Shown here: positions 12,063-52,533 of the stretch, piece by piece
Layout: each line of letters opens with the position of its first letter
Numbering within the stretch: the first letter of the stretch is position 1
From: an uncultured Caldisericales bacterium
GTDB lineage: Bacteria; Caldisericota; Caldisericia; JAAYUI01
Assembly (NCBI GenBank): GCA_964472265.1
Contig: CAYYJO010000003.1
Location: forward strand, 1 to 56,939
DNA: 56,939 nucleotides
Direction: 5' to 3'
Notes under the pieces: model-generated
The model's database searches: none
What the model saw: the letters and a program-made list of their open reading frames with translations, nothing else
Told to the model about the DNA's origin: nothing
Program-made: the position numbers and the translations under genes

Positions 12063-15023
12063 ATGAAGAAGTCTATCCTGTCTATTGTCGCTTTGGTGCT
12101 GGTTCTTGGCTCATTGTCGCTTGCAGGCGCTAAACCTTTTGAGTCAAGTCGTGATTTTTACATCGTAGAGCTTACCGACTACACAGGCAACACCGAAATT
12201 TCATCGATGCTGATTTCAACTCAGCACGAAGGTTTCAAGACGATGATGTTCAGGAAATTTCCGGATGTTCAGGTCAATGCCGAATACAGGACGCTCCTTT
12301 CAGGCTTCTCGCTTGAAATGACTCCACAGGAAGCGAAGGACATGAGCATGGTTGACGACGTAAAAAGCGTTGTCAAAGGCCGTGTCTTTTACCCGCACAT
12401 GTTCAACTCGGTCGTCTCGACCAAGGCTGACAAGGCGTGGGAGATGAAGGATCCGAAAGGAAAAGGGCTTGACGGTTCCGGCGTGCTCGTTGGAATCATC
12501 GACACAGGCATAAACTACGACCATCCTTCGCTTGGCAACGGTTTTGCCAACGAAGACTCAAAGGTCGTTGTTGGATACGATTTCTCCGATCTCGATGCAG
12601 ATCCAATGCCGGTTTCTGGCCATCAGGGCTGGCATGGAACCCATTGCGCAGGCATCGTTGCTGGCAACGGACTTCCTGGCATTGCAAGAAACGACAGAAC
12701 CATCACCGGAATGGCGCCGGGTGCAAAACTTGGAGCCTACAAGGTTTTTGGCAATGTCGGCGGAGCAAGGACTGACAGGATCATGCAGGCAATGGAGAGG
12801 GCATATCAGGACGGCTGCAAGGTTGTCTCGATGAGCCTTGGAAGCACATACGTCTGGGCTGACGAAATCTACTGCAGGATGATCGACAAACTTACCGATA
12901 AAGGCGTTGTTTTCTCGGTCTCAGCCGGCAATGACGGCGGTGGCAGCAGGGATGACCTCCCGTTCCAGGTTGGCTCTCCCGGTGGCGCCGATTCGGCAAT
13001 CTGTGTGGCAGCCATGGATGACACTCCAAAACCGGTCATTTCGTGGGCTTCAGATAAAGCAATCATGAATTACCTCGGTGGTTCGCCAACGGTTGATGAA
13101 ACTCTCTCTGCACCGCTAGCCGATGCTGCCTCAGGTTATGAAGATGACGTAAAAAACCTCGACCTTACAGGAAAAATTGCACTAGTAAAAAGAGGTGACA
13201 AATATTTCAGCGACAAGGCCATTCAGGTACAGAAAAAAGGCGCTGTAGCCTGCATCATTTACAACAACGAACCCGGTGATTTTGGCGGATACCTCGTTGA
13301 TGCGGTCGACATTCCGGTTTTCGGCGTCAGCGACACGGTTGGCGCACAGCTGCTTGAAACCGCAAAAACCGGCGGAACTGCGAGCATAAGTGAACAAAAG
13401 TATCTCGGTGCAATGGCTGATTTCTCATCTGCCGGCCCGACAAACGACTACAGGCTCAAACCGGATGTTTCGGCACCTGGCGTAAACGTTCTTTCAAGCG
13501 TGGGTTCGTCGGCTTATGTCGAGATGAGCGGAACATCGATGGCCTGTCCGACAGTCTCAGGGCTTGCAGCTCTCGTAATTCAGGCGCACCCAGACTGGAC
13601 AGCTCATGATGTCAGGTCGTCAGTCATCAACTATGCTGACCCCCAGGCCGATCTCAAGGGCAATCCATGGTCAATCCACTCACAGGGCACTGGAAGGATC
13701 AACTGTGTCAGCTCGATCAACGCTCCAGCCCTCTTCAAACCGACGTCGCTCAACTTTGGAAAGGTGACTGGCTCAACAGAATTCAAACTCACGATCAAAA
13801 ATCCGACCTCAAAAACAGTAAAATTCAATGTCTCAGTCTACTCGGAAGATGGCATTGTAACCGGTGATGTCAAACCGGTTGAGGTTGCAGCAAAAAAGTC
13901 AGTTGAATACAAAGGAACTCTCAAGGTTTCCTCGCAGGAAGGGCTTGTCCATGTCGGCTACGTTGTCTTTGACAATGGAGAAACCAAAGCCAGAATCGGC
14001 TTCCTTCTCCTTACGAAAGACCCGCCAACGCCACCGGCAATCGACAAACAGATGGTCATGACTCCTGTTTTCTCGCCAAACGGTGACAAAAAACTTGACC
14101 GTTTCATTGCCCAGTTCAGCGTCAACAAGATGCTCGACGGTTTCGAATGGGATTTGCTTGACGAAGACGACAATCTTGTAAGTGTTCTCGACTACAGCTA
14201 CGGTCTTCAGGGCGGTGGCTTCTGGTTCCTCACCTGGAGCGGGATCGTTGAGAACGTTCCGCTTGAAGGCGGAAAGTACAAGATGGCAGTTTACACACTC
14301 GACCGCAACAAAGACCCAAGGATTCAGGCAAACTGGGAAAAGTGGGGACCAATTGAATTCTTTGTCGTTGATGAGAAGCCTGAAATAACAATGGAAAAAA
14401 TTCCGGAAGTTGTGTTCAACACGGAGGAGATAACCCTCAAAGGTTCTATCTCAGACTGGATCGCCGATGCCGATTATCTCGGCGTAAAGGGTTTCGTTTC
14501 AGTGGACACAATCGTAAACGGCAACAAATCAAAACTCATTTTGGATCCGTCTGGCAATTTCGAAACAGTCGTACCGCTCGTTCCCGGGAAAAACCAAATT
14601 CAGGTTGGAGCAACAAACGCTGGAATGATAAGGGCTGAGAAGGATATAAAAATAAATTGTCTCAAACGCATATCACTGTCGGATGGAAGCGGAAAAGTTG
14701 CCCTCAACGATTCAATCATCGATGTCGGTGATGTGAAAGTGTCCAACAACAGGGTTCTTGTAGCAATGGACAAGCTCTCTCTCCTATGCCCCGACCTCTC
14801 TTTGAACCAGAATGGACAAAACATCACTATTATCGTTGATGAAAATGTGGCGAAGATGAGGATCGGACAGCCGTTCATCCTCGCAGATGCCGGAATGAGC
14901 GTGTTTTGTGAGGCTCCGGTGTCAGACAAGGGCGTAACCTATGTTCCGGTCATGGCGCTGTTTGAAGCGCTTGGCGGACAGTACAAAGACGATTCATTCT
15001 GGTTCGTCTGGAGGGGTAATTGA
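12063..15023 (+). CDS. Secreted S8 subtilisin-like serine protease with PA-domain insert, FlgD-Ig-like module and C-terminal copper-amine-oxidase-N-type stalk domain
   Basis: Start at ATG 12063 gives signal peptide MKKSILSIVALVLVLGSLSLAGA. Catalytic motifs GIIDTGINYDH (Asp), HGTHCAGIVAG (His), SGTSMACPTVSG (Ser). PA-like segment GKIALVKRGDKYF...GAVACIIYNN. C-terminal GVTYVPVMALFEALGG stalk motif. Confidence 0.88.
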   Translation: MKKSILSIVALVLVLGSLSLAGAKPFESSRDFYIVELTDYTGNTEISSMLISTQHEGFKTMMFRKFPDVQVNAEYRTLLSGFSLEMTPQEAKDMSMVDDVKSVVKGRVFYPHMFNSVVSTKADKAWEMKDPKGKGLDGSGVLVGIIDTGINYDHPSLGNGFANEDSKVVVGYDFSDLDADPMPVSGHQGWHGTHCAGIVAGNGLPGIARNDRTITGMAPGAKLGAYKVFGNVGGARTDRIMQAMERAYQDGCKVVSMSLGSTYVWADEIYCRMIDKLTDKGVVFSVSAGNDGGGSRDDLPFQVGSPGGADSAICVAAMDDTPKPVISWASDKAIMNYLGGSPTVDETLSAPLADAASGYEDDVKNLDLTGKIALVKRGDKYFSDKAIQVQKKGAVACIIYNNEPGDFGGYLVDAVDIPVFGVSDTVGAQLLETAKTGGTASISEQKYLGAMADFSSAGPTNDYRLKPDVSAPGVNVLSSVGSSAYVEMSGTSMACPTVSGLAALVIQAHPDWTAHDVRSSVINYADPQADLKGNPWSIHSQGTGRINCVSSINAPALFKPTSLNFGKVTGSTEFKLTIKNPTSKTVKFNVSVYSEDGIVTGDVKPVEVAAKKSVEYKGTLKVSSQEGLVHVGYVVFDNGETKARIGFLLLTKDPPTPPAIDKQMVMTPVFSPNGDKKLDRFIAQFSVNKMLDGFEWDLLDEDDNLVSVLDYSYGLQGGGFWFLTWSGIVENVPLEGGKYKMAVYTLDRNKDPRIQANWEKWGPIEFFVVDEKPEITMEKIPEVVFNTEEITLKGSISDWIADADYLGVKGFVSVDTIVNGNKSKLILDPSGNFETVVPLVPGKNQIQVGATNAGMIRAEKDIKINCLKRISLSDGSGKVALNDSIIDVGDVKVSNNRVLVAMDKLSLLCPDLSLNQNGQNITIIVDENVAKMRIGQPFILADAGMSVFCEAPVSDKGVTYVPVMALFEALGGQYKDDSFWFVWRGN

Positions 15024-15727: not shown

Positions 15728-17066
15728 CCTGTTCCCCGGGGCTTTGGCCCAGGAGCCGGCGTGCCAGACGATCAAGGTGGCAATAGGAAGCAACCCGAAG
15801 GATTTTTCCCTCGGGGCAACAGGAGACTACTTTTTTATAGACCCTGGCACTGGCAAGGAATTGGTTGCCGGCACAAAAGAGGTCAAGTGCAAGGTTTCGT
15901 CCGACACAACAAAAGTCTATTCAATCTACATCGACACTTTTTACACCTACGATGATGCTGATGGATTCGGCATTATTTTGGGCAAGAGGTTTCCGGAGGA
16001 TCCGGGAAGACGAGTGACGGCCATCGACGGAGGCCTGTTCAGGCTTGAGCTTGGACAGTACCAGTCCGAAGACGATGCAAAGCAGGCCATGTCAACGCTG
16101 ACCGACATTCCGAAAGCCTCGATCTGTTCATCAACGCTTGCAGGAGTCAAAATTGGTGACACTCTGCTGCTAAAACCTCCCGTTGACAAGAAAGTATGGC
16201 AGTTCCTGATAATCAAGCCGATGGACAATGGTTATCCCGTCTACAACGGCAGAAGATACCGTGGCAAGGTATCGCTCTATATGTCTGAGGGCAAGGTTTA
16301 CGCAATCAACGAGGTTGGTTTTGAAGACTACCTCAAAGGCGTCGTTCCATCGGAAATGCCTGCAAACTGGCCACTGGAAGCGCTCAAGACACAGGCTGTT
16401 TGCGCCAGAACGTACGCATGGGGCTATTGCCAGCATCCAGATCATTACGTCTACAATCTTGGCAGTTCCGATGTCTATCAGGTTTATCTCGGCCTTGACC
16501 AGGAAACCGACAAGTCAAATCAGGCAGTCACTGAAACTTCAGGAATGCTGGCCGTATACGACAACAAGCCTATCAATGCGGTTTTCCACTCTACTTCAGG
16601 TGGAATGACTGAAAACTCCGAAAATGTCTGGGTCTCGGCCGTTCCTTACATGAAAGCCGTTGAATCACCCGGTGAAGAGGAATCACCCCACTACGCCTGG
16701 ATGAAGTTCTCCCCGTTCGACGATGCCCAGGCCAATCTTGCAGAATACACCGGCGATATCGGCGACGTTGCAGGATTCAAGGTCGTCAAGAAAGGCTTGT
16801 CCGGTCGGATTGTCAGCTGTGAAGTGACCGGCACGAAGGGCAAAAAAACGCTTGCCGGCTGGGAAGTCCAGGTTGCCCTTGGGCTGAGGTCGACATGGTT
16901 TGACATCGTTTTTGTTACAGGTGGAATCGTTGCCTGCGGCAGGGGCTGGGGTCATGGCGTGGGCATGTCGCAGTACGGCTCGAAGGCAATGGCCAACAAT
17001 GGCAAAACTTATGTTGAAATAGTCAAGCATTATTACAAGGGGGTCGAGGTCAAGAAATGGTATTGA
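15630..17066 (+). CDS. SpoIID/LytB-family protein with SPOR-like N-terminal domain
   Basis: SpoIID motifs EDYLKGVVPSEMP, ALKTQAVCARTYA, DVYQVYLG, NAVFHSTSGGMTENSENVW and GHGVGMSQYG. SPOR-like segment FRLELGQYQSEDDAKQAM. The start is uncertain: ATG 15630 was chosen, while the ORF track starts at 15588 inside cvpA. Confidence 0.82.
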   Translation: MFIIHSLEVWSIATSLASRRCLALLSALLLAGSLFPGALAQEPACQTIKVAIGSNPKDFSLGATGDYFFIDPGTGKELVAGTKEVKCKVSSDTTKVYSIYIDTFYTYDDADGFGIILGKRFPEDPGRRVTAIDGGLFRLELGQYQSEDDAKQAMSTLTDIPKASICSSTLAGVKIGDTLLLKPPVDKKVWQFLIIKPMDNGYPVYNGRRYRGKVSLYMSEGKVYAINEVGFEDYLKGVVPSEMPANWPLEALKTQAVCARTYAWGYCQHPDHYVYNLGSSDVYQVYLGLDQETDKSNQAVTETSGMLAVYDNKPINAVFHSTSGGMTENSENVWVSAVPYMKAVESPGEEESPHYAWMKFSPFDDAQANLAEYTGDIGDVAGFKVVKKGLSGRIVSCEVTGTKGKKTLAGWEVQVALGLRSTWFDIVFVTGGIVACGRGWGHGVGMSQYGSKAMANNGKTYVEIVKHYYKGVEVKKWY

Positions 17067-17115
17067 TAAACCGTAACACCCCCAACACGTATTTAAAGCA
17101 TTGGAAGGAGGCTTC

Positions 17116-18621
17116 ATGAGAAAGATTGTCTGCCTCATGCTTGTGGCCGTCACGGCTCTTGCATTCATTCCGGCGACAAAAACCCAGGAAACGCCAACAC
17201 TTTGGATTTCACCCCAGTTGGATTATGTGGCCGTGGGTTCGAGCGTACTGATTGAGTGCAAACTTACAAATGCACCGTTCACATACGGTATTTCGGTTGC
17301 AATCGTCTTTGACAACACCTACCTTGAAATCAAGGAGGATGATGTCATCGAGGGAGAATTCTACAGGTCTGACGGAGCGCCGACCGCCTTTTTCAGGAAG
17401 GTCAGCGTTGACAGGGCAAACCCTAAGATCAGCAGGCTCCATGTTGGAGTTTCAAGGATTCTCGACAAGGTTGACACCTACGGCCCGACAACCGGCTCCG
17501 GTCTCGTGTTCTACTTCTCGGCCAAAACCAAATTTGTCGGAGAGGCAGCTCTTGCCTTCGGTTCGGTCAAGATGGTGAGCATCACCTGGAGACAGGGAGA
17601 AGCTGTAATGGAGTACATCCCGGTCAAGCTCGAGGAGAGCAAGATCGTGGTCAGGGCAAAAGACACACTGGCTCCAAATGTCACGCTCACAAGGACTCCA
17701 ACCCCGGAAACCAACATCAACATCAACACTTTCGAGTGGGCGGGGCAGGACGACAGCTCGCCACCGGAAAAGCTTCAGTACTCGTTCAAGCTTGACGATC
17801 CGGCAGTTGCCGGTGAGTGGTCGAAGTGGGATTCAAAGACTCAGGCGGCCGTTGCATTCGTTCGTGAAGGCCAGAACACCTTCTGCGTCAGGGCGCGCGA
17901 CGAGTGGGGAAACATCTCCACAAAGCCAGCCTGTTTCACCTGCAACTTCGACATTACTCCACCAAAGCTCGAGCTGAACCCGATTCCAAAGGAAACTGAA
18001 ACTGAAACCTTCACAATCCTCGGCACAACCGACAAGCCTGACACCGGAGTCACCCTGTTTGTCAATGGCGCAAGGGTTCCGATCAACGCCGAGGGCAACT
18101 TCAGCTACCCGACCAGACTCATCCAGGGACCAAACACAATCCATGTCTACGCTGTCGACAAGTCAGGCAACATCGCCCAGCAGTACTTCACCATAACGCT
18201 GCTTTCAATCGTGAAGATCAAATTGTGGCAGGATGTACCGACAGCTGAGATTAACGGCCAGAGAGTGACAGTCAACCCGGCTCCGATGAACATAGGCGGC
18301 AGAATAATGATTCCGATGAGATTTGTCACCGAGGCTTTCAAGATGACAATAGACTATTCAACATCGGACAAAAAAATCACCGTAACCTGGACTTCAAAGG
18401 ATTCGGCAGGACTACCGCTCACCCACAAGCTCCAGATGTGGATTGGCAAGAAATACTACAACCTTGACGGCAAGACCATCACAAAGAATATGGATGTTCC
18501 GCCGCAAATCATAAAAGGTTCGACGATGGTGCCATTCAGGGCACTGGCTGAGGCAATCGGTGCTCAGGTTAACTGGGACAGCAACGACCGCAGGGTCGAC
18601 ATTTCTTACATCATCAGATAA
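17116..18621 (+). CDS. Candidate anchoring scaffoldin: N-terminal cohesin-like module, Ig-like modules, two C-terminal copper-amine-oxidase-N-type stalk repeats
   Basis: GGAGG lies 7 nt upstream of ATG 17116. Signal peptide MRKIVCLMLVAVTALAFIPA. Cohesin-like beta-sandwich pattern at aa ~33-186 of the ORF (nt ~17197-17658: VLIECKLTNAPFTYGISVAIVFDNTYLEI...GSGLVFYFSAKTKFVGEAALAF). Stalk repeats INGQRVTV..GGRIMIPMRFVTEAF and LDGKTIT..GSTMVPFRALAEAIGAQVNWD. Confidence 0.6.
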   Translation: MRKIVCLMLVAVTALAFIPATKTQETPTLWISPQLDYVAVGSSVLIECKLTNAPFTYGISVAIVFDNTYLEIKEDDVIEGEFYRSDGAPTAFFRKVSVDRANPKISRLHVGVSRILDKVDTYGPTTGSGLVFYFSAKTKFVGEAALAFGSVKMVSITWRQGEAVMEYIPVKLEESKIVVRAKDTLAPNVTLTRTPTPETNININTFEWAGQDDSSPPEKLQYSFKLDDPAVAGEWSKWDSKTQAAVAFVREGQNTFCVRARDEWGNISTKPACFTCNFDITPPKLELNPIPKETETETFTILGTTDKPDTGVTLFVNGARVPINAEGNFSYPTRLIQGPNTIHVYAVDKSGNIAQQYFTITLLSIVKIKLWQDVPTAEINGQRVTVNPAPMNIGGRIMIPMRFVTEAFKMTIDYSTSDKKITVTWTSKDSAGLPLTHKLQMWIGKKYYNLDGKTITKNMDVPPQIIKGSTMVPFRALAEAIGAQVNWDSNDRRVDISYIIR

Positions 18622-18630
18622 GGAGGAAAG

Positions 18631-21600
18631 ATGAAGAAACTCCTCACAATTTTCATCGCCATCTCGATGCTTGCAGGTTTGATGACATTTGTTCCTACAG
18701 GTTCGGTCGTCACCGCTGCAGGTTGCACCGGTTCCAGAAAGGCCAACAACGCCAGGGACGGAAACTATTCAGGAACGCCAATCAATGGCCCGGCGCTCCT
18801 ACAGACCTGGGTCTACAAGGATACAGCCAACATAAGCACCCCACCGCTCTCATGTGGAAACCGTGTTTACCAGGCTCTCAACAGCCGCAGGGTTGTCTGC
18901 ATCGAAAAGCTCTCAGGCACAGAACTCTGGGAGTTCAAGGAAACAACAAATTTCCCGGTGTCATCGATGGCAATCGACCAGGAAACCCAGTCGCTTGTTG
19001 TGACAACAGGTGGACAGATCGAGCGCACATCGACTCTCTATTGTCTCGATGCCTCAACTGGTGGAGTAAGATGGCAGTGGACAGCCGGCACAGACGGCTC
19101 AGTCGGTCAGATTTCGACGGGCGCAACCATCGTCAATCAGCCGGGTATCCCACTGATGATCGTCTTTGGCGTTGACAGGGGAGCAATCATTGCTCTCGAC
19201 CTCAAGTCAGGCTCAAGGATTTGGGGCATTGGTCTTAACGGCGCCATCTACACTGATCCAGTCATTGCCGAAAACAAGATATTTGCACTCAACAATGATG
19301 GTCTGCTCAACATCATCAAGCTCGAAAACGGCCAGATGCTCCAGCAGGTTCAGATTGACGACAAGGTGACTTACGAGTTCATGAACACTCCTGCTTACGC
19401 AGCCGGATTCCTGATCATCGCCTCAAGGTCAAAAGTCAACGGTGACAAAGGCAAGATTTACGCCCTCGACACAGCAACCGGCACAATCGTCTGGAAAACC
19501 TTTGCAATCGACCAATTCTACAAGAGTGGCCCGTCAATCCTCTTCCCTCCAACTTACAAGGATTATCAGGTCATCATCGGTTCAGACACAGGCATTCTCT
19601 ACACCTTCGACCTCAAGACAGGAAGAATGAACTGGTCTGTGAAGATGGTTTTCCCGTTCCTCACCGACATTGTCGTTTCGGGCAAGTACATCCTCTTTGG
19701 CGGAGCAAACACTTTCTACGTGTGTACTGGCGAAACAGGCGACGTGGTCTTCAAGCAGACGCTTGGCATGATCACGGGACATCCGGTTGTTGATGAAGGC
19801 ATGGTTTATGTCGCAACAAACGACAGCAATCTTTACGCCTTCTCAGATCATGACGATTTTGTAATCGATGTCCAACCGAGATCGGATGCCATTTATCCAA
19901 CCAACAAGCGTTCATACAAGGTTGTTATTTCGGCGACCATGAACTTCAGCGATCCGATGGTTCTCAAGGCAACCGGACTTCCAAACAACGTCACTGCAAC
20001 ATTTAGCAAGTCAGTTGTAAAGCCGGGCCTCGAAGCTGTCGAAATCGAACTCGTGCTGCAGGCTGGAGCCGATGCAAAACCTGGTACCTATGTCTGCAAC
20101 ATCTCGGGTGTTCTCCTCGGTCGTGAGCGCAACGCAATCCTTCAGCTCCAGATCCTCGAACCTCTAAAGGGTGAGTTCAAGCTGTCGGTTAGCACTGACC
20201 AGCTGACTCCGTTGAGAAACATCAATCCTGGCGACACAATCCCGTTCATGATCAAGGTTGAGGCAATCGGTGGTTTCAATGCCGAAATCGCCTTCTTTGC
20301 AAACCCGTTAACCTTGCCTTCAGGAATGGACGTCTTATTCAGCCCAGGCAAGCTCACACCCGATGGTTACGTTACGGCCATTGTCAGAACCGACACTTCT
20401 TCAGAAGCCGACCTCTACAATATCGAAATTCAGGGACATGCTGGCGGAAAGATCGCCACCACGACTGTAAGATTCCAGATCGGCGGCATGGATACCGAAT
20501 CATGGCCGATGTTCCAGAAGGACACAGTCAGGAACGGTCGCACAAAAGAGCCGTTCTTCCCTGACCCCCAGCTCAGGTGGGATTTCAAAATTACCATTGA
20601 AGGCAATACCGATGCTGTCCCGAGGATTAGAACCCAGCCAATCCAGGAATTTGGAATGCTTTATTTCACGGCTGAGTGGGAGAGCAAGGAAAACTCAAGA
20701 ATCCATGAATCAAGGCTGTATGCTACAGATTCTAAAACCGGCCAGGTCATCTGGACGTTTGACTTCATGAAATCGGTTTTCGAGGTTGATAACTTCGACG
20801 ACTGCGAAGACAAGCAGTGGCCTGTCATGAGCACCCCTGCTGTCGACAGCGAGGAAGGGCTTCTCTACATCGGCTCGCTTGACGGCGTTTTCTACTGCCT
20901 CGATGCAAGAACCGGCCAGAGGGTCTGGAGCTATAACACAAAGAGAATCATCAGAACTCCGGTTCTTCTTCTCAAGCCACCGGAAGTCACCAAAAAGATG
21001 GTTTATTTTGCGACCGTTGAAGGCACAATCCATGCGATGGCAGCCGGTCGTGACGCAAATGCAACCGTTGTCGCAACTTTTGCAGCTCCAAGCAAGGTTT
21101 ATGCAGGCTTCTCATACGCTCTCAACAAGAAACCGCCACAGCAGCCAATGATCCTGTTCCCGTGTTTTGACGGCCAGGTTTACGCACTGAATGCCAACGA
21201 CCTGACAAAAGTCTGGGCAGTTTCGATCTACAACATAAAGAACCTCAGCACAATTGCAGTTGACAACGACAGACAGGAGTGGTGGATCGCATCGTCTCAG
21301 GGCGATCCTGGCACCTGTTACCAGAACTCGATGGTTGAGCGCCACTATTTGCAGGATGGAAACCTTGGCTGCCAGAGGGCTACGTTTGGTCCAACATTCG
21401 GTTCGCCAGCCCTTGTTCTCCTTCAGGATGCAACCATCTGCCACTTTGCGACAAACTTTGGTTCGACACCACAAACACCCGCGCCGACCTACCGCTTCAT
21501 GAAGCTTAAAAACGACCAGTGCCTTGGAATGTCCGACATTGTTGTTGAAAAAGGCATGTGGAACTGTGATGGCGAGCAGTGCATGAAGAACGACTACAAC

Positions 21601-39346: not shown

Positions 39347-39375
39347 TTCAACAGAGCAAACTATTGGAGGGCAGC

Positions 39376-42300: not shown

Positions 42301-42738
42301 CTCCAGGGCGATCCAAAGGTTTCGTTCTCCGTTAGCCACGATAAAGACAAGGAGACTGTTTATGTGAGCATCCAGAGGGTGCTTGACGGCGTTTCCGGTG
42401 ACGGTTGCCTGGTCAAGCTCAAGTTTGTGGCGTTGGAGCCAAACTATTTTGACGTGAAGTTCTCGGACATCACCCTCACCAAAGTTGATGACAATGAGAA
42501 AGAAGTAAACATCAAATCCTTCTACCGGGATGGTGAGATCGCAATCTACCCAACAGCATATTCTGTGGCTGATTTCAACCGGGATGAAAAGGTTGATGAC
42601 AAGGATTACAAGATCATTCTTTCCTGTCTTGGCGCAAAGGATGGCGATCCAAACTACAACTGGAGATGTGACCTCAACTTTGACAGAGTGATCGATATAA
42701 ACGATCTGTCCATCTTCTCAAAGAATTACAAGAAATAA
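39376..42738 (+). CDS. Subtilase paralog 3: S8 protease with PA insert, FlgD-Ig-like module, cohesin-like module and C-terminal dockerin
   Basis: Signal peptide MKSWVSILCVTAIVFSLFIP. Motifs VTDSGLDYAHSDFG, GHGTACAGIIAA, SNNSYG, NGTSAAGPMVAGCAAL. Cohesin-like nt ~42112-42561. Dockerin DFNRDEKVDDKD...CDLNFDRVIDIND nt ~42562-42735. Confidence 0.85.
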   Translation: MKSWVSILCVTAIVFSLFIPINNSNALEKIDENLIARGFGSSETVEVFVELMEPTVVQSATFKTNKIFAAREIMNPGNIMTRFLVSKLTRMQDVSIGKIEAVASGFEVLDRFQYAFNGLYAKAPLAAIEKIASLPDVKFVWGNATLYPTRTRARVALGCETVWQTITDPKGRPVDGSGMLVSVTDSGLDYAHSDFGSQKKAIGNKIKVSRDFAYNDDDCQEESNLYTVGHGTACAGIIAADGPKNKTTGVMEKGLAPKASLAGYKMGYRDEPGFSSASALKAFESMIKDKVDVSNNSYGSPTGRSPNQVAEENCVKAGIVVVASQGNEGSPGSYLKITSSNTASPPSVISVGALDDTDGAKLEILDSNDPHMTGDVMPLLMGITGIQFTSADLPFEIVDCGWGRSEDFKGLDVKGKIVLMQKGPHSSEKQGAEVDFRQKCINATKNGARAAIIYNYNNTELRPEYYDPLKEDPKKIGLLPAFQLVGYGQGMQIRSALHKGNKWQKGMVDTRQNTVKAKIRDVGRRGAISTYSSQGPSYFGFLKPDVCAPADETHTTAASFMKKYLGDYWEFFNGTSAAGPMVAGCAALVKQGRPEWTAYEIKRALMNTAEPLKRVSGDYYLPMVSQGMGRVHAQLAITTNLLIQPASTVIIAKDGRVNMTDPSDDLYDPDKFQLLPNDVKTSKIPLKFTNYSKKEMTVDLSYEVNSLHPERVSVDITSSSLKVPPADDKGNPGSAWVGVNIDFNQGNKARLNDIYIWAVDKASNRKWHVGVCLYSQNPTSPGVENTYVNAVEISDPVISPNGDGIDETLEGTFEVSCGNFEYENFDNYLQRAQIWAIDVNQDEWVLINEEPFLELGPHKFTWDGKDSNGDYILPDGDWTFKIFVPAHVVSNGKTVSGYYSSLIEDSGFTVESSPIPTPPTLSTIINPYEPGVGQTFEVAIYLKGAKNIKSVEFYLTIPSSSQLATYMGYEKGDFMLQGDPKVSFSVSHDKDKETVYVSIQRVLDGVSGDGCLVKLKFVALEPNYFDVKFSDITLTKVDDNEKEVNIKSFYRDGEIAIYPTAYSVADFNRDEKVDDKDYKIILSCLGAKDGDPNYNWRCDLNFDRVIDINDLSIFSKNYKK

Positions 42739-42756
42739 ATCCCGCCCCCATCAAAA

Positions 42757-42794
42757 AAACGACCGTCATTTTGCCATGGCGGTCGTTTTCATTT
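42757..42794 (+). terminator. Rho-independent terminator after paralog 3
   Basis: 9-bp stem aaacgaccg / cggtcgttt with a 14-nt loop, followed by ttttcattt. Confidence 0.65.
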
Positions 42795-42799
42795 ATAAT
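42771..42799 (+). promoter_or_regulatory. Sigma70-type promoter for subtilase paralog 4, overlapping the preceding terminator
   Basis: TTGCCA (42771-42776, inside the terminator loop), 17-nt spacer, TATAAT (42794-42799). Predicts a ~20-nt leader before ATG 42826. Confidence 0.5.
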
Positions 42800-42825
42800 G
42801 GATGGAAAATGGATGGTGCAAAAAG

Positions 42826-45800: not shown

Positions 45801-46155
45801 AGGAACCAGTGGTACAAGAGAGTTGCTCAGGCTTGGTTTCATGGCAAAGAAGGCCAGTTTTGCCGATGTGATTTTCGATGGTCTTGAAGTTACCGGATTG
45901 AACGACGCTGGCAAAGAGGAAAAAATAAGGATTTTATCAAGAGATTTGGAGTTTGCTATTGAAAAGACCGCCTTCAGTCCAGCCGATTTCAATAGGGATG
46001 GCAAGGTTGACAATGCCGATCTGGACTTGATCACCAATCTGCTTGGCGTTATAAAAGGCGATAAAACCTACAATTCCAGATGTGATATGGACAGAAATGG
46101 CATTATAGACACAACCGATCTGGCCATGTTTGCCAAATACCTGAATGCGCCGTGA
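42826..46155 (+). CDS. Subtilase paralog 4 (most divergent): S8 protease with PA insert, FlgD-Ig-like module, cohesin-like module and C-terminal dockerin
   Basis: Signal peptide MMKKIALLVSVMIILPVAGVFA. Motifs ITDTGLDYTHPDFG, LHGTACASIAAG, SSNSWG, GGTSSATPFVAGCAAL. Cohesin-like nt ~45529-45978. Dockerin DFNRDGKVDNAD...CDMDRNGIIDTTD nt ~45979-46152. Confidence 0.85.
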   Translation: MMKKIALLVSVMIILPVAGVFAIQDGLSKIRPSVPSCDPETTVGVFVELRDPPVVFAQTFNGAVAISSRELMRPGNVSTRFQLAMLTNMQEKHLRTVKNIAPGSKIGMSYRYAFNGYFIETKRANLEKIANLPEVLSIFAIKPQTIQRTRTRALIGAEKVWQTVKDPKGREVDGKGVLISITDTGLDYTHPDFGSQKKPVGSKVVVSRDLAMKDNDCQEEAMELHGTACASIAAGDGPDNTVTGVKEKGIAPKALLAGYKGAAIINGQEQFTQEAAMASWDWLIIDKIDVSSNSWGVPSGEHEFEKQELACALVGCTVVCANGNYGTQGDGYFPLPQSSSGAGNSAIGVGATDDLDVSYLKVSNKNDSVQLTGMWGETGKTFEKFETPLPVVDCLWGRAGDFPDVKGKVALIERGPFDPKFGEPVTFAAKIERAYDNGALAIILSNIDSSFIYGSYADDTSQKMLPIYELGNFQGDAVRRRLHDMTSWKPGELDLKQKDVKVEFSRPKVKGTVAYFSSNGPTKLGFLKPDVCAAGIGVHAAASKHFWDIYKGYYFETMGGTSSATPFVAGCAALVKQARPGWSPFEIKRALMNTGTLLTKMDGSRFLPFVAQGMGRVNVYDVCTTNILIQPPSALIVANSKKINIADKPPELGDPAKQAGIPKDVLKSDIPLKIYNYSDKEVTLNLSFEINSGKPDQFRVGFTSTEVVVPPAKDEPGSTWVGMNVKMPAIVWGSLNDIIIWMTDKVTNRRVHTGICIYSGDPEKGRPKQGIIKDLRASNWRITPDGDGVDDEIEFKYDITGGLKDGEPYPIINNQGKMLVFWATDKTGGRWSAIHVQDEFEPGPDSFVWDGKDIDGKMVLPDGEWFVGVTALSKSLSAEQSAFVDGISEYQTDCSFVMEGSSTEPPPSISATVDPIEPSVGNKLWICLNLSHANNVKSLSMKVKIEDAKEFMPYIGYEVMTTVDDLGAKPLVTVDYDGETGTIEIGWQKPFEGTSGTRELLRLGFMAKKASFADVIFDGLEVTGLNDAGKEEKIRILSRDLEFAIEKTAFSPADFNRDGKVDNADLDLITNLLGVIKGDKTYNSRCDMDRNGIIDTTDLAMFAKYLNAP

Positions 46156-46169
46156 GGAGTCAAGTTTAG

Positions 46170-47132
46170 ATGCTTGCGCTGAAACAGGATTTCATTGAGT
46201 TTTGCAGGCAGCGACAGCTGTTTGGAAAAGGTGACAGAGTTTTGGTCGCTTGCTCTGGTGGGTCGGATTCCGTGGCTTTGCTCAGGCTGCTGGAGTCAAC
46301 AAAAAATCTTTTTGGAATCAGTATTTTCTGCGGTCATGTCGATCATTGCCTGAGGCCTGGTTCGCATAATGACGCTGAATTTGTCAGGGCTGTATGCGAC
46401 AAGCTCTCAATTCCGTTTGCTCTGGAGAGAATTTCCGATGCTCCAGCCGGAAACCTTGAGGATTGGGCAAGAACCTGGCGACGGACATTGCTTGAAAAAA
46501 TGGCAATAGATTTTGGTTGCAACAAGATAGCCATCGCCCACAACGCAAACGACAAGGCAGAAACGCTGCTCCACAATCTTGCCAGAGGCTCAGGGCTTTA
46601 CGGAGCTGCCAACATGCGCTCACAACATGGAAACACCATCCGCCCGCTCTTGTTTGCCGGGAAAAGGGTAATTTTGCACTACCTTGGTGAACTCGGGCAA
46701 GGGTATGTGACTGACGAAACCAATGACGATACAAGATTTTCACGAAACATGATAAGAGCCAGGGTGATTCCCGAACTGGAATCGATTTTTCCTGAAACTG
46801 TTGCCAATATTTCAAGATTTTCAGAGCTTGCCTGCGATGAGTCCAGTTTTCTTGATGATCTGACCCGAGACTTCATGAAGTCAGTATTATCCGGCAACTC
46901 CCTGAGTGTATCAAAATTTTCAGTTGTCCCCAAGGTTTTGAAGCCAAGAATTGTGAGGCTGATAGTTGACTCAAAACATCCACCGTCACTTTCTGCCTGT
47001 ACAAACACTGTCGAATTCATTGAGACTTCCGAAACCGGAAAACATCTGACTGTGGACTGTGTGACATTTAACAAGATTTCAAAAAATATTGTCAATATTC
47101 TTTTCTTGCATGACACCGACCAAAGGTTATAA
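46170..47132 (+). CDS. tilS: tRNA(Ile)-lysidine synthase (short form)
   Basis: 320 aa with PP-loop VACSGGSDS. The position upstream of hpt-ftsH matches the conserved tilS-hpt-ftsH arrangement. Confidence 0.85.
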   Translation: MLALKQDFIEFCRQRQLFGKGDRVLVACSGGSDSVALLRLLESTKNLFGISIFCGHVDHCLRPGSHNDAEFVRAVCDKLSIPFALERISDAPAGNLEDWARTWRRTLLEKMAIDFGCNKIAIAHNANDKAETLLHNLARGSGLYGAANMRSQHGNTIRPLLFAGKRVILHYLGELGQGYVTDETNDDTRFSRNMIRARVIPELESIFPETVANISRFSELACDESSFLDDLTRDFMKSVLSGNSLSVSKFSVVPKVLKPRIVRLIVDSKHPPSLSACTNTVEFIETSETGKHLTVDCVTFNKISKNIVNILFLHDTDQRL

Positions 47133-47144
47133 TCCACCTCGTCA

Positions 47145-47669
47145 ATGGAACTCACGCTTGGCGATGTTTTGATCCCTTCACGGGAGATCGGTTCAAAGGT
47201 TTCTTTCCTGGCTGGCAGGATTGCCGAGGAATATGGCTGCGAACTGCCGGTTTTTGTTGCTCTTCTGACCGGCTCGTTCATTTTCTGTTCTGACCTTGTC
47301 AGGCAATTCAACCAATCAATACAGGTCTGCTTCATAAAAGCCAGCTCCTACAGCGGAACATGCACAACCGGAAAGGTGACGGTCACAGGTCTTGACGGAC
47401 TGAACCTCAAGGATCAAAGGGTGCTCATTGTTGAGGACATCGTTGACACAGGACTGACGTTAAATTCAGTCGTGGAAAGCATAAAACAAAAATCTCCAAA
47501 GGATGTCAAAGTAGTGTCGCTGCTTGACAAGCCGTCACGGAGGAAGGTTGATTTCACGCCTGACTTTGTGGGTTTTTCAATCCCGGATTTTTTCGTGGTT
47601 GGATACGGGCTTGACTGCAACGAACAATACAGGAACCTTCCTGACATACACCAGATGAGGATCGGATGA
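47145..47669 (+). CDS. hpt: Hypoxanthine phosphoribosyltransferase
   Basis: 174 aa with PRPP-binding motif VLIVEDIVDTGLTL. ATGA overlap with ftsH. Confidence 0.9.
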   Translation: MELTLGDVLIPSREIGSKVSFLAGRIAEEYGCELPVFVALLTGSFIFCSDLVRQFNQSIQVCFIKASSYSGTCTTGKVTVTGLDGLNLKDQRVLIVEDIVDTGLTLNSVVESIKQKSPKDVKVVSLLDKPSRRKVDFTPDFVGFSIPDFFVVGYGLDCNEQYRNLPDIHQMRIG

Positions 47670-49483
47670 AACAGAACAAACAGGACGCTTTCAGACCATA
47701 CTTGCCATTCATTATCATTGTTGGCATAGCAATTTTACTTTACTTTGCATTCAGCTTCATGGGCAAGCCGCAGGTGGACACGATTTCCTACAGCGACTTT
47801 ATGACAGCTCTGAACGGAAACAAGATCAAATCGGTCAACATTGACCCTTCAAACTACGCGGTAACCGGCGAGTACACCTCAGACACCGGGAAAACCAGCT
47901 TTGAAGTCGTCATTCCACCTGAGCTTGTTGAAAAAGTGACCAAAGACATTGAAACCAGGGCGATAAAAATCAGCTTTGAGGCACCGAGTGAAAACTTCTT
48001 CCTTATATTGCTGACAAACATTGGCCCATTCATCCTCATTCTCGTCTTTTGGTTCTTCATGATGAGATCAATGCAAGGCTCCGGAAACCAGGTGTTTAAC
48101 TTTGGCAAGTCCAAAGCCAGGCTGTTCCTTGACGACCGCCCGAGAATAACCTTCAAGGACGTTGCCGGAATCCCGGAGGTCAAGGAGGAACTCAAGGAAG
48201 TGATTGATTTCCTCAGGGAGCCTAAGCGTTTCACGGCAATGGGCGCAAAGGTTCCAAGGGGCGTTCTGCTTGTTGGCCCTCCAGGTTGTGGAAAAACCTA
48301 CATCAGCCGTGCCGTTGCAGGCGAGGCGAAGGTTCCGTTCTTCTCAGTGTCTGGTTCCGAGTTTGTTGAGATGTTCGTCGGTGTTGGCGCATCCAGAGTC
48401 CGTGACCTTTTCGACCAGGCAAAGCGCTACGCTCCTGCGCTCATCTTCATCGATGAGATCGATGCTGTCGGAAGACAGCGTGGAGCAGGTCTTGGTGGTG
48501 GCCACGATGAGCGTGAACAGACCCTCAACCAGTTGCTTGTCGAGATGGACGGATTTGAACCGAACGCCGGAGTCATAATCATTGCTGCAACCAACAGACC
48601 CGACATTCTGGACACTGCGCTTCTCAGACCGGGAAGGTTTGACAGACGCGTGGTGATCGATATGCCAACCCAGATGGAGCGTGAGGCGATTTTGAAGTAC
48701 CACTCCAGAAACAAGCCAATGGCAGACGATTTCGAGATAGAAACCATCGCCAAGCGCACAGCCGGTTTCTCCGGCGCCGACCTCGAAAATCTTCTCAACG
48801 AAGCGGCAATCATAGCCACAAGAAGGCAGAAAAAGAGAATCGAGCACGACGACGTTGAAGAGGCAATCGACCGTATTCTTGCCGGCCCACAGAAGAGGAC
48901 GAGAGTCCTTGGAGCTGTCGAAAAACAGAAGGTCGCCTACCACGAAGCCGGTCACGCCGTGATCATGCATGTGCTTGGCCCGGAACCGGTGCACAGAATC
49001 TCAATCGTTTCAAGAGGCATGGCTCTCGGCTACACAACCCCGCTTCAAACCGAAGACAAATACCTGAGAACCCAGGATGACCTTTCAAACACCATCTCTG
49101 GACTCATGGGCGGAATGTGCGCTGAAAAGATCGTTTTCGGCGAGATTTCAACCGGCGCAAGCAACGACATCAGAAAAGCAACCGATCTTGCCAAGAAGAT
49201 GGTCATGGAATTCGGCATGAGCAAGCTTGGGCCAGTCGCTTTTGGTAACCCACCAGAAACAGTCTTCCTTGGACGCGACTTCATGGGTCAGGCAGATCAC
49301 TCTGAAGAAACAGGCAAGCTCATTGACGCTGAGGTGATGAGAATCATCAACACTGCATCGGAAAGAGCCGCCCAGGCCATCACAAAAAATCGTGCAATAC
49401 TGGATGAACTGGTCTCAAAACTGCTCGAACAAGAGACGCTTGACGAGGACAAACTGAACGAAATCCTTTCAAAAGCTCAATGA
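47666..49483 (+). CDS. ftsH: ATP-dependent zinc metalloprotease FtsH
   Basis: 605 aa. Two N-terminal TM helices, Walker A GPPGCGKT, Walker B IIFIDEID-type (LIFIDEIDA), and HEAGHA zinc motif. Confidence 0.95.
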
Positions 49484-50271
49484 ACTGGCTTTACTTAAAT
49501 CAGGGTGCTTTGAGCGGAGCCATGAACATGGCCATCGACGAGGCTTTGCTTGAACTGGCAGAGCCTGGTTCGGTCATCTTCAGGACATACACATGGAATC
49601 CGGCAACCCTGTCGCTTGGAGTTTTCCAGAAAATTTCGGATGTAAACCGTGAAGAGCTCGATAAACGCGGGTTTGGGCTGGTAAGACGGGCGACCGGTGG
49701 ACGAGCAGTGCTCCACGACAAAGAGCTGACTTATTCAATCATAATCAAAGCCCCACACCCGCTGATCGAAAAAAATGTCCTTGAATCCTACTACTATTTG
49801 TGTCAGGGGTTGGTTGAGGGTCTGAGGATGCTTGGTGTTGACGCAGCCCTGAAAAAATCCGACGATCCTTCACTTTCGACACCATCTTGCTTTGCCGCTC
49901 CCACTTTCAACGACATCGAGGCGTCAGGCAAAAAACTTGTCGGTTCAGCGCAGATGAGGAACAGGCTAGGGTTGCTTCAGCATGGTTCGATTCTCATTGA
50001 TGTGGATTTGGATGATCTTTTTGCTGTGGTAACCAAAGATGAAACTTCGGCTAAAAGGCTTGCTGACGCTGCAAAATCCAAGATTACATGCATCAATACC
50101 GAAGCCGGCAATCGGGTCAGTTTGGAAGAAGTGCGCCAAGCCGTCATTTCTGGGTTCGAGAAGTCGTTAAACGTTGGCTTTACTCCTATTGTATTTGAAG
50201 GAGAAATGGTTACCCTTTCAAATGAACTCTGCAAAAACAAGTACGGTTCGGACACCTGGACTGTGCGATAA
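49480..50271 (+). CDS. Lipoate-protein ligase / octanoyltransferase family protein (BPL/LplA/LipB catalytic domain)
   Basis: 263 aa. MNMAIDEALL N-terminus and the conserved lysine context ASGKKLVGSAQ are typical of the LplA/LipM family. ATGA overlap with ftsH. Confidence 0.75.
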   Translation: MNWLYLNQGALSGAMNMAIDEALLELAEPGSVIFRTYTWNPATLSLGVFQKISDVNREELDKRGFGLVRRATGGRAVLHDKELTYSIIIKAPHPLIEKNVLESYYYLCQGLVEGLRMLGVDAALKKSDDPSLSTPSCFAAPTFNDIEASGKKLVGSAQMRNRLGLLQHGSILIDVDLDDLFAVVTKDETSAKRLADAAKSKITCINTEAGNRVSLEEVRQAVISGFEKSLNVGFTPIVFEGEMVTLSNELCKNKYGSDTWTVR

Positions 50272-50280: not shown

Positions 50281-52533
50281 ATGAAAAAAGTTGCGCTTTT
50301 ACTCGCCGTGGCATTGATTCTTTCGGGAGTCCAGTTTGCCTCTGCCTCAAACGATGACAGACTCGACTGGTACTGCTTCCAGAAAGACCCGTTCAGGAAA
50401 GGCATGGCGTTTGCAGATGAAAGCATCATCACGCCGCTGACGGTCGGTTGGGAAATCCAGCATGGCCAGAAACCGGTTGGCACAATTCTCATCACCAGAT
50501 CCATGGCAATTGTGACGGGCGAAAAAGGACTTATCGGCGCCTACTCAATCGCCGACGGTTCGCCAATTTGGAAACGCGATTTCGGAGTTGGACTCACCAC
50601 CGAAGGAACCATCATGGAAGACGTCATGACTGTCTGTCTGCCTGGCGGAAAAATCGTTGGCCTTGACACAGGAACCGGAGGATCACTCTGGGAAACTGCA
50701 GTCATTGGCGATGTCATCTCCCCACCGATCCCGTATCTTTCAAATTTCTACATCACAACAAGCGAAAAAAAGTTTGCAACAATCTCTTGCGTCAGTGGTT
50801 TTGTCTACAGCCAGATTGACGCAACCGAAAAACTTATGACACCACTGACCATCCAGATGCAGGGCGACTACAGCATTAGCCTTTATGGCGTTTCAGAGAG
50901 CAACCAGCTTGTAAAGTGGGAGTTCTTTGGCTCGAAGGTTGAGCCGGTCAACAAACTCGAAGGCAGCTACAAACTCCCGCTCATTGCCAACTCGGAAACA
51001 CTCCTGATCCCGGACATGAAGGGTTCCATCAGATGCATGGACTACATGGGACAGAAGCAGTACTGGGCGGTTGACATGGGTGGAGAAATCGCCTCCGCTC
51101 CGTGCACAATGGAATCAGGAATCTATGTCGCAGCAGCAAACAAAGCCGGTGGAATCAAGGCAATACAGATCGGAAACGGAAAACCGATTTGGGAAGTCAA
51201 GGCTCCAGGCCCAATCACACAGCCACTGATTTCAGTCGGAAGAAACGTAATAGCATTCACGGACACAGGTCACCTCATCGCCCTTTCAAACATCGATGGC
51301 ACAATTGTTTCAGACACAAATGTCAGTGAACCGTCTGTAACTCCAATGTCATACAGCACATCGTCAATTTTCTTTGGCACAAAGAGTGGAAAGATCATGT
51401 GCGTCAGGTCTTCAACCGGTGGATACAAGTTCTCGCTTGGAACCAAACTCGTTGTCGCAGCTCCGGGTACAGAAAAGACAGTCGACCTCACGCTTGAGGG
51501 TGATGGGCCAGATCAGTTTTACATCCAGGCCTATGGTTTCCCGTGCCGTTGCAAAATCAACAGAACATTTATCCCTGACACCACAATAAAGCCAGGTGCA
51601 GCCAGCACCATGAAGCTGACAATCGACCCAACCGCACCGTCAGCTGTTTACGAGGTTCAGCTTGAAGTCCGTTCGATGCAGAGTTCTTCAATAATTCTGC
51701 GCCAAAGCCTCACAATAATCATTTCAAAGCCTGAAGAGATGCTCAAGCCACAGCTCGCAGTTTCTTTGCCGGGCGACAACAAGGTGCTGCTCAAGATAGG
51801 CTACCAGAATGCAAAATTTGGTCGCTCGTTCGCAGGCATCATAACCTTCAAGCCTGAACTCCTCAAGTTCCAGTCGCTTGCCGTTGACACTTCGATTGCA
51901 AAGCTTCTGGACACCAAGATTTCAATGTACAGCTACGATGCTTCGATCCCAGGCAAGCTCATCGTTTTCTACTCGAGCAAGGACACAATCCCGGAATCAA
52001 ATCCAGTGTTTGAAGCTCTGTTCACGGTGGTTTCATCCGGTGCAGACAAATTCTCATTCACATCAGCTTCAAGAACGACAAATGGCCAGCCAATTCCGGC
52101 CGACATGATGGAAGTTCCGTATGAAGTCAAAATGATCCAGACAGAGCACATAGTTAAACTTCAGATTGGCAACCTGAAGGCAACCGTTGACGGCAAAGAA
52201 GTGGTTCTGAAGGTCGCTCCGTATGTCAACTCCGGCAAAACAATGGTTCCGCTCAGATTCATCGGCGATGCCCTCGGTGCAGAGGTCGTCTGGAATGCCG
52301 ATGAAAAGTCAGTCGTCTACAAGAACTCTCTCCCGACAGGTGCAAGAGAGATCAAGTTGTGGCTTGGAAAAACCAAGGCCCTCGTAGATGGCAAGGAAGT
52401 CGAAGTCAAGCCAGCTCCAGAATCAAAAGCTGGAAACACCTGCGTTGGTCTCTCATTCGTCTCAGCCAACTTCGGCTGCAAGACCGAGTGGGATCCAACA
52501 ACAAAGACAGTAACAATCAAGTTTTCAAAGTAA
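50281..52533 (+). CDS. Candidate anchoring scaffoldin 2: PQQ/BamB-like beta-propeller, Ig-like module, cohesin-like module, two copper-amine-oxidase-N-type stalk repeats
   Basis: 750 aa with GGGGGAG SD and signal peptide MKKVALLLAVALILSGVQFASA. Propeller blades (IGAYSIADGSPIWKRDF, IVGLDTGTGGSLWETAV, IKAIQIGNGKPIWEVKA). Cohesin-like nt ~51748-52134. Stalk repeats VDGKEVVLKVAPYVNSGKTMVPLRFIGDALGAEVVWN and VDGKEVEVKPAP... at nt ~52150-52530. Confidence 0.65.
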   Translation: MKKVALLLAVALILSGVQFASASNDDRLDWYCFQKDPFRKGMAFADESIITPLTVGWEIQHGQKPVGTILITRSMAIVTGEKGLIGAYSIADGSPIWKRDFGVGLTTEGTIMEDVMTVCLPGGKIVGLDTGTGGSLWETAVIGDVISPPIPYLSNFYITTSEKKFATISCVSGFVYSQIDATEKLMTPLTIQMQGDYSISLYGVSESNQLVKWEFFGSKVEPVNKLEGSYKLPLIANSETLLIPDMKGSIRCMDYMGQKQYWAVDMGGEIASAPCTMESGIYVAAANKAGGIKAIQIGNGKPIWEVKAPGPITQPLISVGRNVIAFTDTGHLIALSNIDGTIVSDTNVSEPSVTPMSYSTSSIFFGTKSGKIMCVRSSTGGYKFSLGTKLVVAAPGTEKTVDLTLEGDGPDQFYIQAYGFPCRCKINRTFIPDTTIKPGAASTMKLTIDPTAPSAVYEVQLEVRSMQSSSIILRQSLTIIISKPEEMLKPQLAVSLPGDNKVLLKIGYQNAKFGRSFAGIITFKPELLKFQSLAVDTSIAKLLDTKISMYSYDASIPGKLIVFYSSKDTIPESNPVFEALFTVVSSGADKFSFTSASRTTNGQPIPADMMEVPYEVKMIQTEHIVKLQIGNLKATVDGKEVVLKVAPYVNSGKTMVPLRFIGDALGAEVVWNADEKSVVYKNSLPTGAREIKLWLGKTKALVDGKEVEVKPAPESKAGNTCVGLSFVSANFGCKTEWDPTTKTVTIKFSK

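Follow-up and report, generated by a model that had tools for sequence, protein, structure and literature searches.

We analyzed a 56,939-nucleotide stretch of DNA from an uncultured Caldisericales bacterium (contig CAYYJO010000003.1 of assembly GCA_964472265.1; hereafter the window means this whole stretch), for which an earlier sequence-only reading had proposed a protease-loaded surface assembly of the cohesin-dockerin kind. Our results favor, with moderate confidence, a non-cellulosomal cohesin-dockerin system that probably displays protein-degrading enzymes on the Caldisericales cell surface. The window encodes seven cohesins and six dockerins in total, with no protein carrying more than one cohesin. 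Five of the six dockerin proteins, namely four tandem subtilases and a non-catalytic giant protein of 1700 amino acids (aa), also bear a cohesin (the exception is an esterase), and two further proteins, termed anchor 1 and anchor 2, combine a single cohesin with a Cu_amine_oxidN1 domain (PF07833). The overall interpretation given by the sequence-only reading is thus partly supported: its modules are real, while the division into dockerin-bearing cargo and anchoring scaffoldins is not a clean one, since most of the cargo carries cohesins and a multi-cohesin scaffoldin is missing.

Dockerin modules

A dockerin was defined as a duplicated calcium-binding loop with its helix (D1, N/D3, D/N5 and D12 in each repeat), and modules of this type, which are components of a cohesin-dockerin system in the broad sense as judged by their sequences, are present in the window. 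The Dockerin_1 profile of Pfam matches all six proteins previously proposed to be dockerin-bearing cargo, and the D-x-N-x-D-G repeats, whose failure against Dockerin profiles had been named as a refuting outcome, are the segments recovered. At a gathering score (GA) of 22.9 bits, the scores in the last ~55 residues of the tandem subtilases are 35-37 bits in S8_4, 23.1 in S8_3, 22.5 in S8_2 and 17.2 in S8_1, whereas the giant reaches 26.6 bits. A hidden Markov model (HMM) built from the family and run against all six-frame open reading frames (ORFs) found exactly six modules and no others in the window. The low Dockerin_1 scores are not a matter of chance, because the profile finds a match in each of the 31 subtilase family members, whose identity to S8_4 is 36-86%, and the calcium-ligand columns of both loops (D1062, D1066, D1073, D1095 and D1106) are invariant in the 31-member alignment. 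The loop consensus of the family is DFNxDGKVDxxD ... RCDLNYDxxIDxxD, and the dockerin of S8_4 (about 45982-46146) is canonical.

The sixth dockerin belongs to the esterase (41-2194, minus strand), an alpha/beta-hydrolase with two DUF11 domains and a PKD domain that is located outside the span 12063-52533. Its dockerin (~1064-1222) is the least certain of the six, with a borderline Dockerin_1 score of 22.8 bits, an E-value of 6e-4 with the local HMM, and a non-canonical Tyr at position 3 of the second calcium loop. This module is internal rather than C-terminal, being placed between the hydrolase and the DUF11 and PKD domains.

Cohesin-dockerin tandems in the subtilases and the giant

The cohesins within the cargo proteins were overlooked by the sequence-only reading. 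In the four subtilases and the giant, a cohesin lies directly N-terminal to the dockerin, from which it is separated by a linker of only 5-8 residues. The subtilase genes follow one another on the plus strand: S8_1 (32350-35748) consists of an I9 domain, an S8 domain with a PA insert, immunoglobulin (Ig)-like domains, a cohesin (~35137-35556) and a dockerin (~35575-35733); S8_2 (35815-39249) has its cohesin at ~38638-39060 and its dockerin at ~39076-39222; S8_3 (39310-42738) at ~42169-42540 and ~42568-42717; and S8_4 (42802-46155), the copy beside tilS, at ~45544-45969 and ~45982-46146. The giant (18631-23733, plus strand) has three PQQ/BamB-like beta-propellers followed by a cohesin (~23170-23499) and a dockerin (~23542-23694). 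Thus, S8_1 to S8_4 have an Amy4-like layout, with a catalytic module, a cohesin and a dockerin in one chain.

By the Pfam Cohesin profile (GA of 24.1 bits), the cohesin of the giant scores 32.1 bits and that of S8_3 scores 24.6 bits, above the gathering score; S8_2 and S8_1 score 18.2 and 16.4 bits, both along the full profile, and the cohesin of S8_4 was assigned through the family profile. Pfam Cohesin is matched in 8 of the 31 subtilase family members. The only sequence match of the subtilase-family cohesin profile in the PDB is the Archaeoglobus fulgidus cohesin 2xdh (E-value 0.008). None of the 31 subtilase family members has lost the tandem, and all nine orthologs of the giant have it too. 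The full-length subtilase architecture was found in only ~29 protein clusters, all of them from Caldisericia where named.

Candidate anchoring proteins

By a cohesin we mean a nine-stranded beta-sandwich of ~140 aa related to PF00963, and domains of this kind were found in both proteins that the sequence-only reading had proposed as anchoring scaffoldins. In both, the Cu_amine_oxidN1 domain it had named is strongly matched in Pfam, at 116 and 147 bits. Hence both anchors have the composition of OlpC and ScaG, a single cohesin plus PF07833. In Clostridium thermocellum OlpC and in ScaG of Acetivibrio cellulolyticus and C. clariflavum, a single type I cohesin is joined to PF07833 (PMC3413522), and the PF07833 domain of OlpC, named the cell-surface-binding module (CSBM), binds secondary cell-wall polymers (PMC4582956). 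The idea of anchoring scaffoldins therefore has an experimental precedent. PF07833 also occurs widely, on surface proteins as well as on wall hydrolases (PMC4137172).

Anchor 1 (17116-18621, plus strand) includes a signal peptide, a cohesin (~17188-17655), two Ig/FN3-like domains and a Cu_amine_oxidN1 domain (~18250-18603). The window protein itself has no Pfam Cohesin match; for the same region (aa 30-185) the profile is matched in 3 of 12 orthologs, with a best E-value of 6.6e-6. The AlphaFold2 model computed from the ortholog alignment has a mean predicted local distance difference test (pLDDT) score of 80, and its top Foldseek match in the PDB is the cohesin-FN3 structure of C. perfringens GH84C (E-value 2.7e-9). 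Against single cohesins the template-modeling (TM) scores are 0.65-0.76 (A. fulgidus 2xdh, C. acetobutylicum 6kgd, C. thermocellum OlpC 4dh2 and CipA 1ohz), with 2xdh as the best single-domain structural match (0.76) and OlpC 4dh2 at 0.69. The cohesin profile of anchor 1 also aligns with that of the subtilase family (hhalign E-value 2.9e-5 over 119 columns).

Anchor 2 (50281-52533, plus strand) has a signal peptide, an 8-bladed BamB-like beta-propeller, an Ig-like domain, a divergent cohesin (~51736-52146) and a Cu_amine_oxidN1 domain (~52183-52518). AlphaFold predicts a beta-sandwich of about nine strands at aa 486-622. Direct sequence searches of Pfam and of PDB chains with this candidate cohesin were empty; these negatives are uninformative, because the fold-verified cohesin of anchor 1 is equally invisible to such searches. 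Comparison of the domain with the anchor 1 and subtilase cohesins by hhalign was negative (about 1-2% probability), and in Foldseek the matches to the anchor 2 model as a whole were all BamB-like propellers. When 1.84 billion representative proteins were searched with the domain profile, the hits included multi-cohesin proteins in addition to the orthologs; of nine hits scanned, five have 5-8 Pfam Cohesin repeats (137-296 bits), and the matched stretches fall on these repeats. Aligned with the Pfam-verified cohesin repeats, the profile gave a probability of 95.7% in hhalign (E-value 9.7e-9 over 89 columns). We accept the domain, on this profile evidence, as a divergent cohesin from a separate sub-lineage that appears related to multi-cohesin proteins of the type IX secretion system (T9SS) type. 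A second refuting outcome named in advance, that the supposed cohesins would be unrelated Ig-like domains or have another fold, was not encountered either, the cohesins being recognized by fold or by profile.

A metagenomic protein of 1086 aa (P0031) has NHL/beta-propeller repeats, a Pfam Cohesin domain and Cu_amine_oxidN1. The plan of anchor 2, a propeller with a cohesin and a CSBM, therefore recurs in at least one other family.

Enzymes and candidate directly anchored proteins

The subtilases of the window, of which there are five, match Peptidase_S8 (1e-42 to 1e-56) plus the PA domain in Pfam. The Asp/His/Ser motifs (D-T/S-G, H-G-T and G-T-S-x-A-x-P) are present in all five and are invariant in the 31 family sequences. 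Among solved structures, the closest to them are those of large PA-domain subtilases, such as 8jmw, Tk-SP and C5a peptidase. The four tandem copies share 38-54% identity among themselves.

The fifth subtilase (12063-15023, plus strand) has a signal peptide, an I9 propeptide, an S8 domain with a PA insert, Ig-like domains and a C-terminal Cu_amine_oxidN1 domain (~14739-14987; 24.2-26.2 bits), which agrees with its earlier description as an enzyme anchored directly by a stalk. The same description is less well supported for an M1-family metallopeptidase (29283-32120, minus strand), in which the C-terminal Cu_amine_oxidN1-like segment (~29364-29567) scores 19.8-21.1 bits, below the gathering score of the family (E-value ~3e-4). 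This protein has a HEXXH motif at aa 320 and matches Peptidase_M1 in Pfam (E-value 2.1e-15), and its nearest solved relatives are, at a distance, ERAP2 aminopeptidases. The GXMEN exopeptidase motif typical of aminopeptidase N was not found in it; judging from these features, it may not be an aminopeptidase, and exopeptidase activity is uncertain.

No family of glycoside hydrolases (GHs) or carbohydrate-binding modules (CBMs) is matched in Pfam by any window ORF of at least 150 aa, and the Glucodextran_B matches in the window are Ig-like spacer domains. The earlier statement that such signatures are absent holds to this extent, with the qualification that the best Pfam family of the esterase is BD-FAE (feruloyl/acetyl-xylan esterase type, 1.4e-40), which is the only carbohydrate-related hint in the window. 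The esterase also has HGG and GGSAG motifs, as in hydrolases of the hormone-sensitive-lipase type. Accordingly, what the window encodes is not a cellulosome in the strict sense: neither a multi-cohesin scaffoldin with a CBM nor a dockerin-bearing GH cargo is found within it. In a related Caldisericia metagenome-assembled genome (MAG), a protein of 827 aa located ~10 kb downstream of the anchor 2 ortholog has a faint Glyco_hydro_130 match plus Cu_amine_oxidN1 (at 19803-20001 and 13821-14019 of two related loci), and CSBM-anchored carbohydrate-active enzymes may exist elsewhere in Caldisericia genomes.

Genomic organization

The genes under study form two conserved blocks. Block A consists of the CSBM-bearing subtilase, cvpA, spoIID, anchor 1 and the giant, and is kept in nine Caldisericia MAGs, down to ~47% identity. 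Anchor 1 and the giant are separated by 9 nt and are adjacent in nine MAGs. A promoter-like site precedes the block (12027-12055), and the giant is followed by a strong terminator-like hairpin (23752-23780; 12 bp, GC-rich, ending in a T tail). Block B consists of a subtilase with the cohesin-dockerin tandem, tilS, hpt, ftsH, lplA and anchor 2, and is kept down to 38% identity. In distant relatives it contains one subtilase only, beside tilS in the position of S8_4, so that the four copies in the window represent a lineage-specific tandem expansion. Intergenic hairpins of 13-14 pairs lie between the subtilase paralogs at 35769-35798 and 42756-42799 (plus strand); the second overlaps an 11/12 sigma-70-like promoter (promoter-like site 42771-42799) just upstream of S8_4. 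Since no hairpin was found between S8_4 and tilS, one transcript may cover S8_4, tilS-hpt-ftsH-lplA and anchor 2.

The claim of one clustered system of about 40 kb did not hold. We rejected a single operon or cluster, as cvpA, spoIID, tilS, hpt, ftsH and lplA lie among the genes in question, these genes are on both strands, and the blocks are ~175 kb apart in the complete 2.23-Mb chromosome OY771555.1. The 40-kb "cluster" consists of two units that lie side by side locally, each containing an anchor and a single type of cargo. Judging from the conserved gene linkage, the giant may be the partner of anchor 1 and the subtilases may be the partners of anchor 2.

Host lineage and other genes of the window

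By the ORF listing and Pfam scans, the window is chromosomal, with ten large secretory-type proteins scattered among many housekeeping genes: ligA, a RecN-like gene, nadK, folD and fhs (2234-9321), cvpA and spoIID (15020-17066), and tilS, hpt, ftsH and lplA (46170-50271). The N-termini of the ten proteins, judged by eye, are basic, hydrophobic and signal-peptide-like. For four of them the start coordinates of the sequence-only reading look better than those of the ORF program, whose TTG starts lie upstream of a likely ATG just before the signal peptide (12021/12063, 17101/17116, 32317/32350 and 32210/32120). In NCBIfam none of the eight proteins run received a name above threshold.

Related loci that match in full length come from Caldisericia, Caldisericales or Caldisericota MAGs, except one labeled uncultured bacterium; the nearest MAG contig shows 93% identity at the protein level, and the sources of the relatives include anaerobic sludge digesters and membrane bioreactors. 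A Firmicutes origin, hinted at by SpoIID, the tilS-hpt-ftsH order and Cu_amine_oxidN1, was rejected because the related loci are from Caldisericota. Caldiserica reportedly have no lipopolysaccharide (LPS) genes and have been placed with lineages in which the outer membrane was lost (PMC5007114; bioRxiv 10.1101/2021.05.31.446380), and the amino-acid degraders of digesters and methanogenic reactors include Caldisericota (PMC7382037). The genes fhs (formate-tetrahydrofolate ligase, 7690-9321) and folD (6836-7681), both on the minus strand, adjoin block A here and in relatives, a neighborhood that fits a fermentative, acetogenic-type one-carbon metabolism.

Two regions deserve a separate description. 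The gene at 9660-11333 (minus strand) encodes a protein of 557 aa with a lipoprotein-like signal (LAGC), whose sole family match is a weak one to MG2 (alpha-2-macroglobulin, E-value 8e-4). It is oriented divergently beside the CSBM-bearing subtilase, an arrangement kept in 8 of 9 related MAGs, and could be a protease-related partner or inhibitor. The region downstream of the giant (23799-28909) varies among relatives; here it contains small unknown ORFs and SIMPL/DUF541, DUF5666 and DUF4760 proteins. The corresponding position in OY771555.1 (locus 16824-20855) encodes a beta-helix protein of 1343 aa with Cu_amine_oxidN1, which is another candidate wall-anchored enzyme.

Proposed assembly and alternative explanations

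In the reading that we favor, the Cu_amine_oxidN1 domains would bind wall polymers as in OlpC, which would make the two cohesin proteins anchors, and a wall without an LPS outer membrane would serve as the display surface for proteases held by these OlpC-like anchors. Dockerins would plug into the anchor cohesins in a calcium-dependent manner, that of the giant presumably into anchor 1 and those of the subtilases into anchor 2. A docked enzyme would then expose its own cohesin, so that further copies could chain on, as proposed by analogy with Amy4 of Ruminococcus bromii, and this would substitute for a multi-cohesin scaffoldin. In this way the wall would come to be covered by endopeptidases, propeller binding modules and an M1 enzyme of the aminopeptidase type, a layer that might feed an amino-acid-fermenting lifestyle. 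The most elaborate version of this model is a scaffoldin-free, self-extending "proteolysome" of the class Caldisericia, in which each protease supplies both a socket and a plug and is daisy-chained from two OlpC-like anchors, together with the propeller binding modules. We put it forward tentatively and regard it, as a whole, as rather doubtful; if true, it would be a polymeric protease coat with an assembly logic unlike that of scaffoldin-based cellulosomes.

Several observations count against surface display by cohesin-dockerin pairing. Binding is putative, and so are the pair assignments, for which gene linkage is the sole basis. This linkage is weak evidence, as gene order is conserved class-wide and adjacency may reflect slow rearrangement; moreover, essential housekeeping genes separate the subtilases from anchor 2. 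PF07833 is C-terminal to the cohesin here and N-terminal in OlpC, and it can act as a dimerization domain, as in the Paenibacillus superoxide dismutase PaSOD (PMC10432803). The envelope type of these uncultured Caldisericales is presumed. Finally, the cohesins and dockerins of S8_1 and S8_2, the dockerin of the esterase and the Cu_amine_oxidN1 segment of the M1 protein score at or below the Pfam gathering scores, and the cohesin of anchor 2 was recognized by remote profile evidence over ~90 of 143 positions.

Among the alternatives, the one that survives best is one-to-one tethering with no chaining, in which dockerins engage the anchors only and the adjacent cohesin acts as an in-cis clasp or stabilizer like an X-module. 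A linker of 5-8 residues suggests a rigid two-domain unit, and the enzyme-borne cohesins score below scaffoldin cohesins on the Pfam profile. However, so short a linker would also argue against the dockerin reaching the binding face of its own cohesin, which would make in-cis binding unlikely and favor contacts in trans; the enzyme-borne cohesin of Amy4 binds dockerins in trans, its own type included (PMC4611034); and the cohesin is conserved in every family member. We consider tethering of this kind unlikely.

Another explanation would dispense with the wall. If Cu_amine_oxidN1 dimerizes, as it does in the PaSOD homodimer (PMC10432803), cohesin-dockerin contacts could build cell-free or matrix complexes (aggregates, cell-cell adhesion, biofilm) with the propellers as adhesins. 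It is consistent with such a role that non-catalytic beta-propellers occur on the two largest of the cohesin/dockerin proteins and that cell-cell contacts via cohesin-dockerin proteins have been proposed for anaerobic methanotrophic (ANME) archaea (PMC9012536). On the other hand, the sole experiment on PF07833 joined to a cohesin, that on OlpC, found binding to wall polymers (PMC4582956), wall hydrolases and surface proteins commonly bear PF07833 (PMC4137172), and half of the ten proteins are intact peptidases. We consider cell-free or matrix complexes decidedly unlikely. Least probable of all is the absence of any assembly, with the modules as degenerate Ig-like spacers and calcium-binding stabilizers that co-occur through tandem duplication and conserved synteny: although several modules are below the Pfam thresholds, a single tandem gene family accounts for four of the six dockerins, and the blocks are interleaved with housekeeping genes and lie apart in a relative, both calcium loops and the cohesin are strongly constrained across 31 and 10 sequences, dockerins are present on three types of cargo (subtilase, beta-propeller protein and esterase), and dedicated non-catalytic proteins join a cohesin to a known anchoring module, as they do in functioning systems.

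Significance and comparison with known systems

If the pairing is real, display of proteases on the wall would mean that the cohesin-dockerin principle also serves a surface machine for protein degradation, and does so in Caldisericota, a phylum with almost no experimental biology that is nevertheless common in anaerobic digesters. Such a system would be built from plug-and-socket enzymes instead of a scaffoldin, and would offer a concrete hypothesis for amino acid acquisition by Caldisericales. Its seven cohesins and six dockerins, coming from a distant lineage, may be orthogonal to the clostridial ones and hence useful for designer enzyme complexes.

The anchors resemble OlpC and ScaG in domain composition, with a single cohesin plus PF07833, and the OlpC cohesin 4dh2 aligns to the anchor 1 model. 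They differ in the reversed domain order (cohesin first, CSBM C-terminal) and in their extra Ig-like domains or beta-propeller. In addition, OlpC and ScaG serve a cargo of carbohydrate-active enzymes in Clostridia, whereas the cargo in the window consists of peptidases in Caldisericota.

The subtilases resemble R. bromii Amy4, a catalytic protein (GH13) with a cohesin and a C-terminal dockerin, whose cohesin binds the dockerin of the same protein as well as dockerins of other enzymes (PMC4611034). In R. bromii, dockerin-bearing peptidases also bind cohesins, and enzymes are organized by single-cohesin proteins with no large scaffoldin (PMC4611034). However, Amy4 is an exception within its own system, whereas in the window the tandem is found on all of the dockerin-bearing proteases as well as on the giant. 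The catalytic modules differ as well (GH13 versus S8), anchoring in R. bromii is by sortase (Sca2), and self-binding of the window proteins is suggested only by analogy.

Non-cellulosomal cohesins and dockerins are widespread, according to Peer et al. 2009 as cited in PMC9012536 and PMC8542988. Those of A. fulgidus, likewise from a non-cellulolytic organism, include the cohesin 2xdh that matches both the subtilase-cohesin profile and the fold of anchor 1; that system is archaeal, and neither a protease array nor CSBM anchors have been described for it. In Candidatus Stygibacter (Cloacimonadota), another uncultured anaerobe with dockerin-bearing peptidases, dockerins are attached to S8/S53 and C25 peptidases, and extracellular polypeptide degradation was inferred (PMC8542988). 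Its predicted cellulosome-like complex includes a scaffoldin of 3,755 aa that bears tandem cohesins and CBMs, and also a C-terminal attachment domain of the T9SS type and GH18/GH57 cargo, whereas in the window no scaffoldin, CBM or GH was seen and the enzymes bear their own cohesins. Among single proteins, an S8 peptidase with a cohesin is depicted in the set of A. cellulolyticus scaffoldins (PMC3413522). Streptococcal C5a peptidase, the lactococcal cell-envelope proteinases and Vpr are likewise large, secreted, surface-acting S8 enzymes with a PA insert and Ig/FN3-like stalks, but their attachment to the wall is through LPXTG/sortase or another wall-binding domain and involves neither a dockerin nor a CSBM.

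A full-text literature search for Caldiseric* together with dockerin found nothing relevant. The novelty implied by the sequence-only reading is retained for the combination and given up for its parts, as peptidases with dockerins or cohesins have precedents (PMC8542988, PMC4611034, PMC3413522). What appears to be undescribed is an almost wholly peptidase catalytic cargo with a universal cohesin-dockerin tandem on the proteases and the giant, together with OlpC-type anchors, no scaffoldin being seen, and conservation across a class of Caldisericota. Each ingredient has a precedent, and the advance lies in their combination and its taxonomic reach rather than in the principle.

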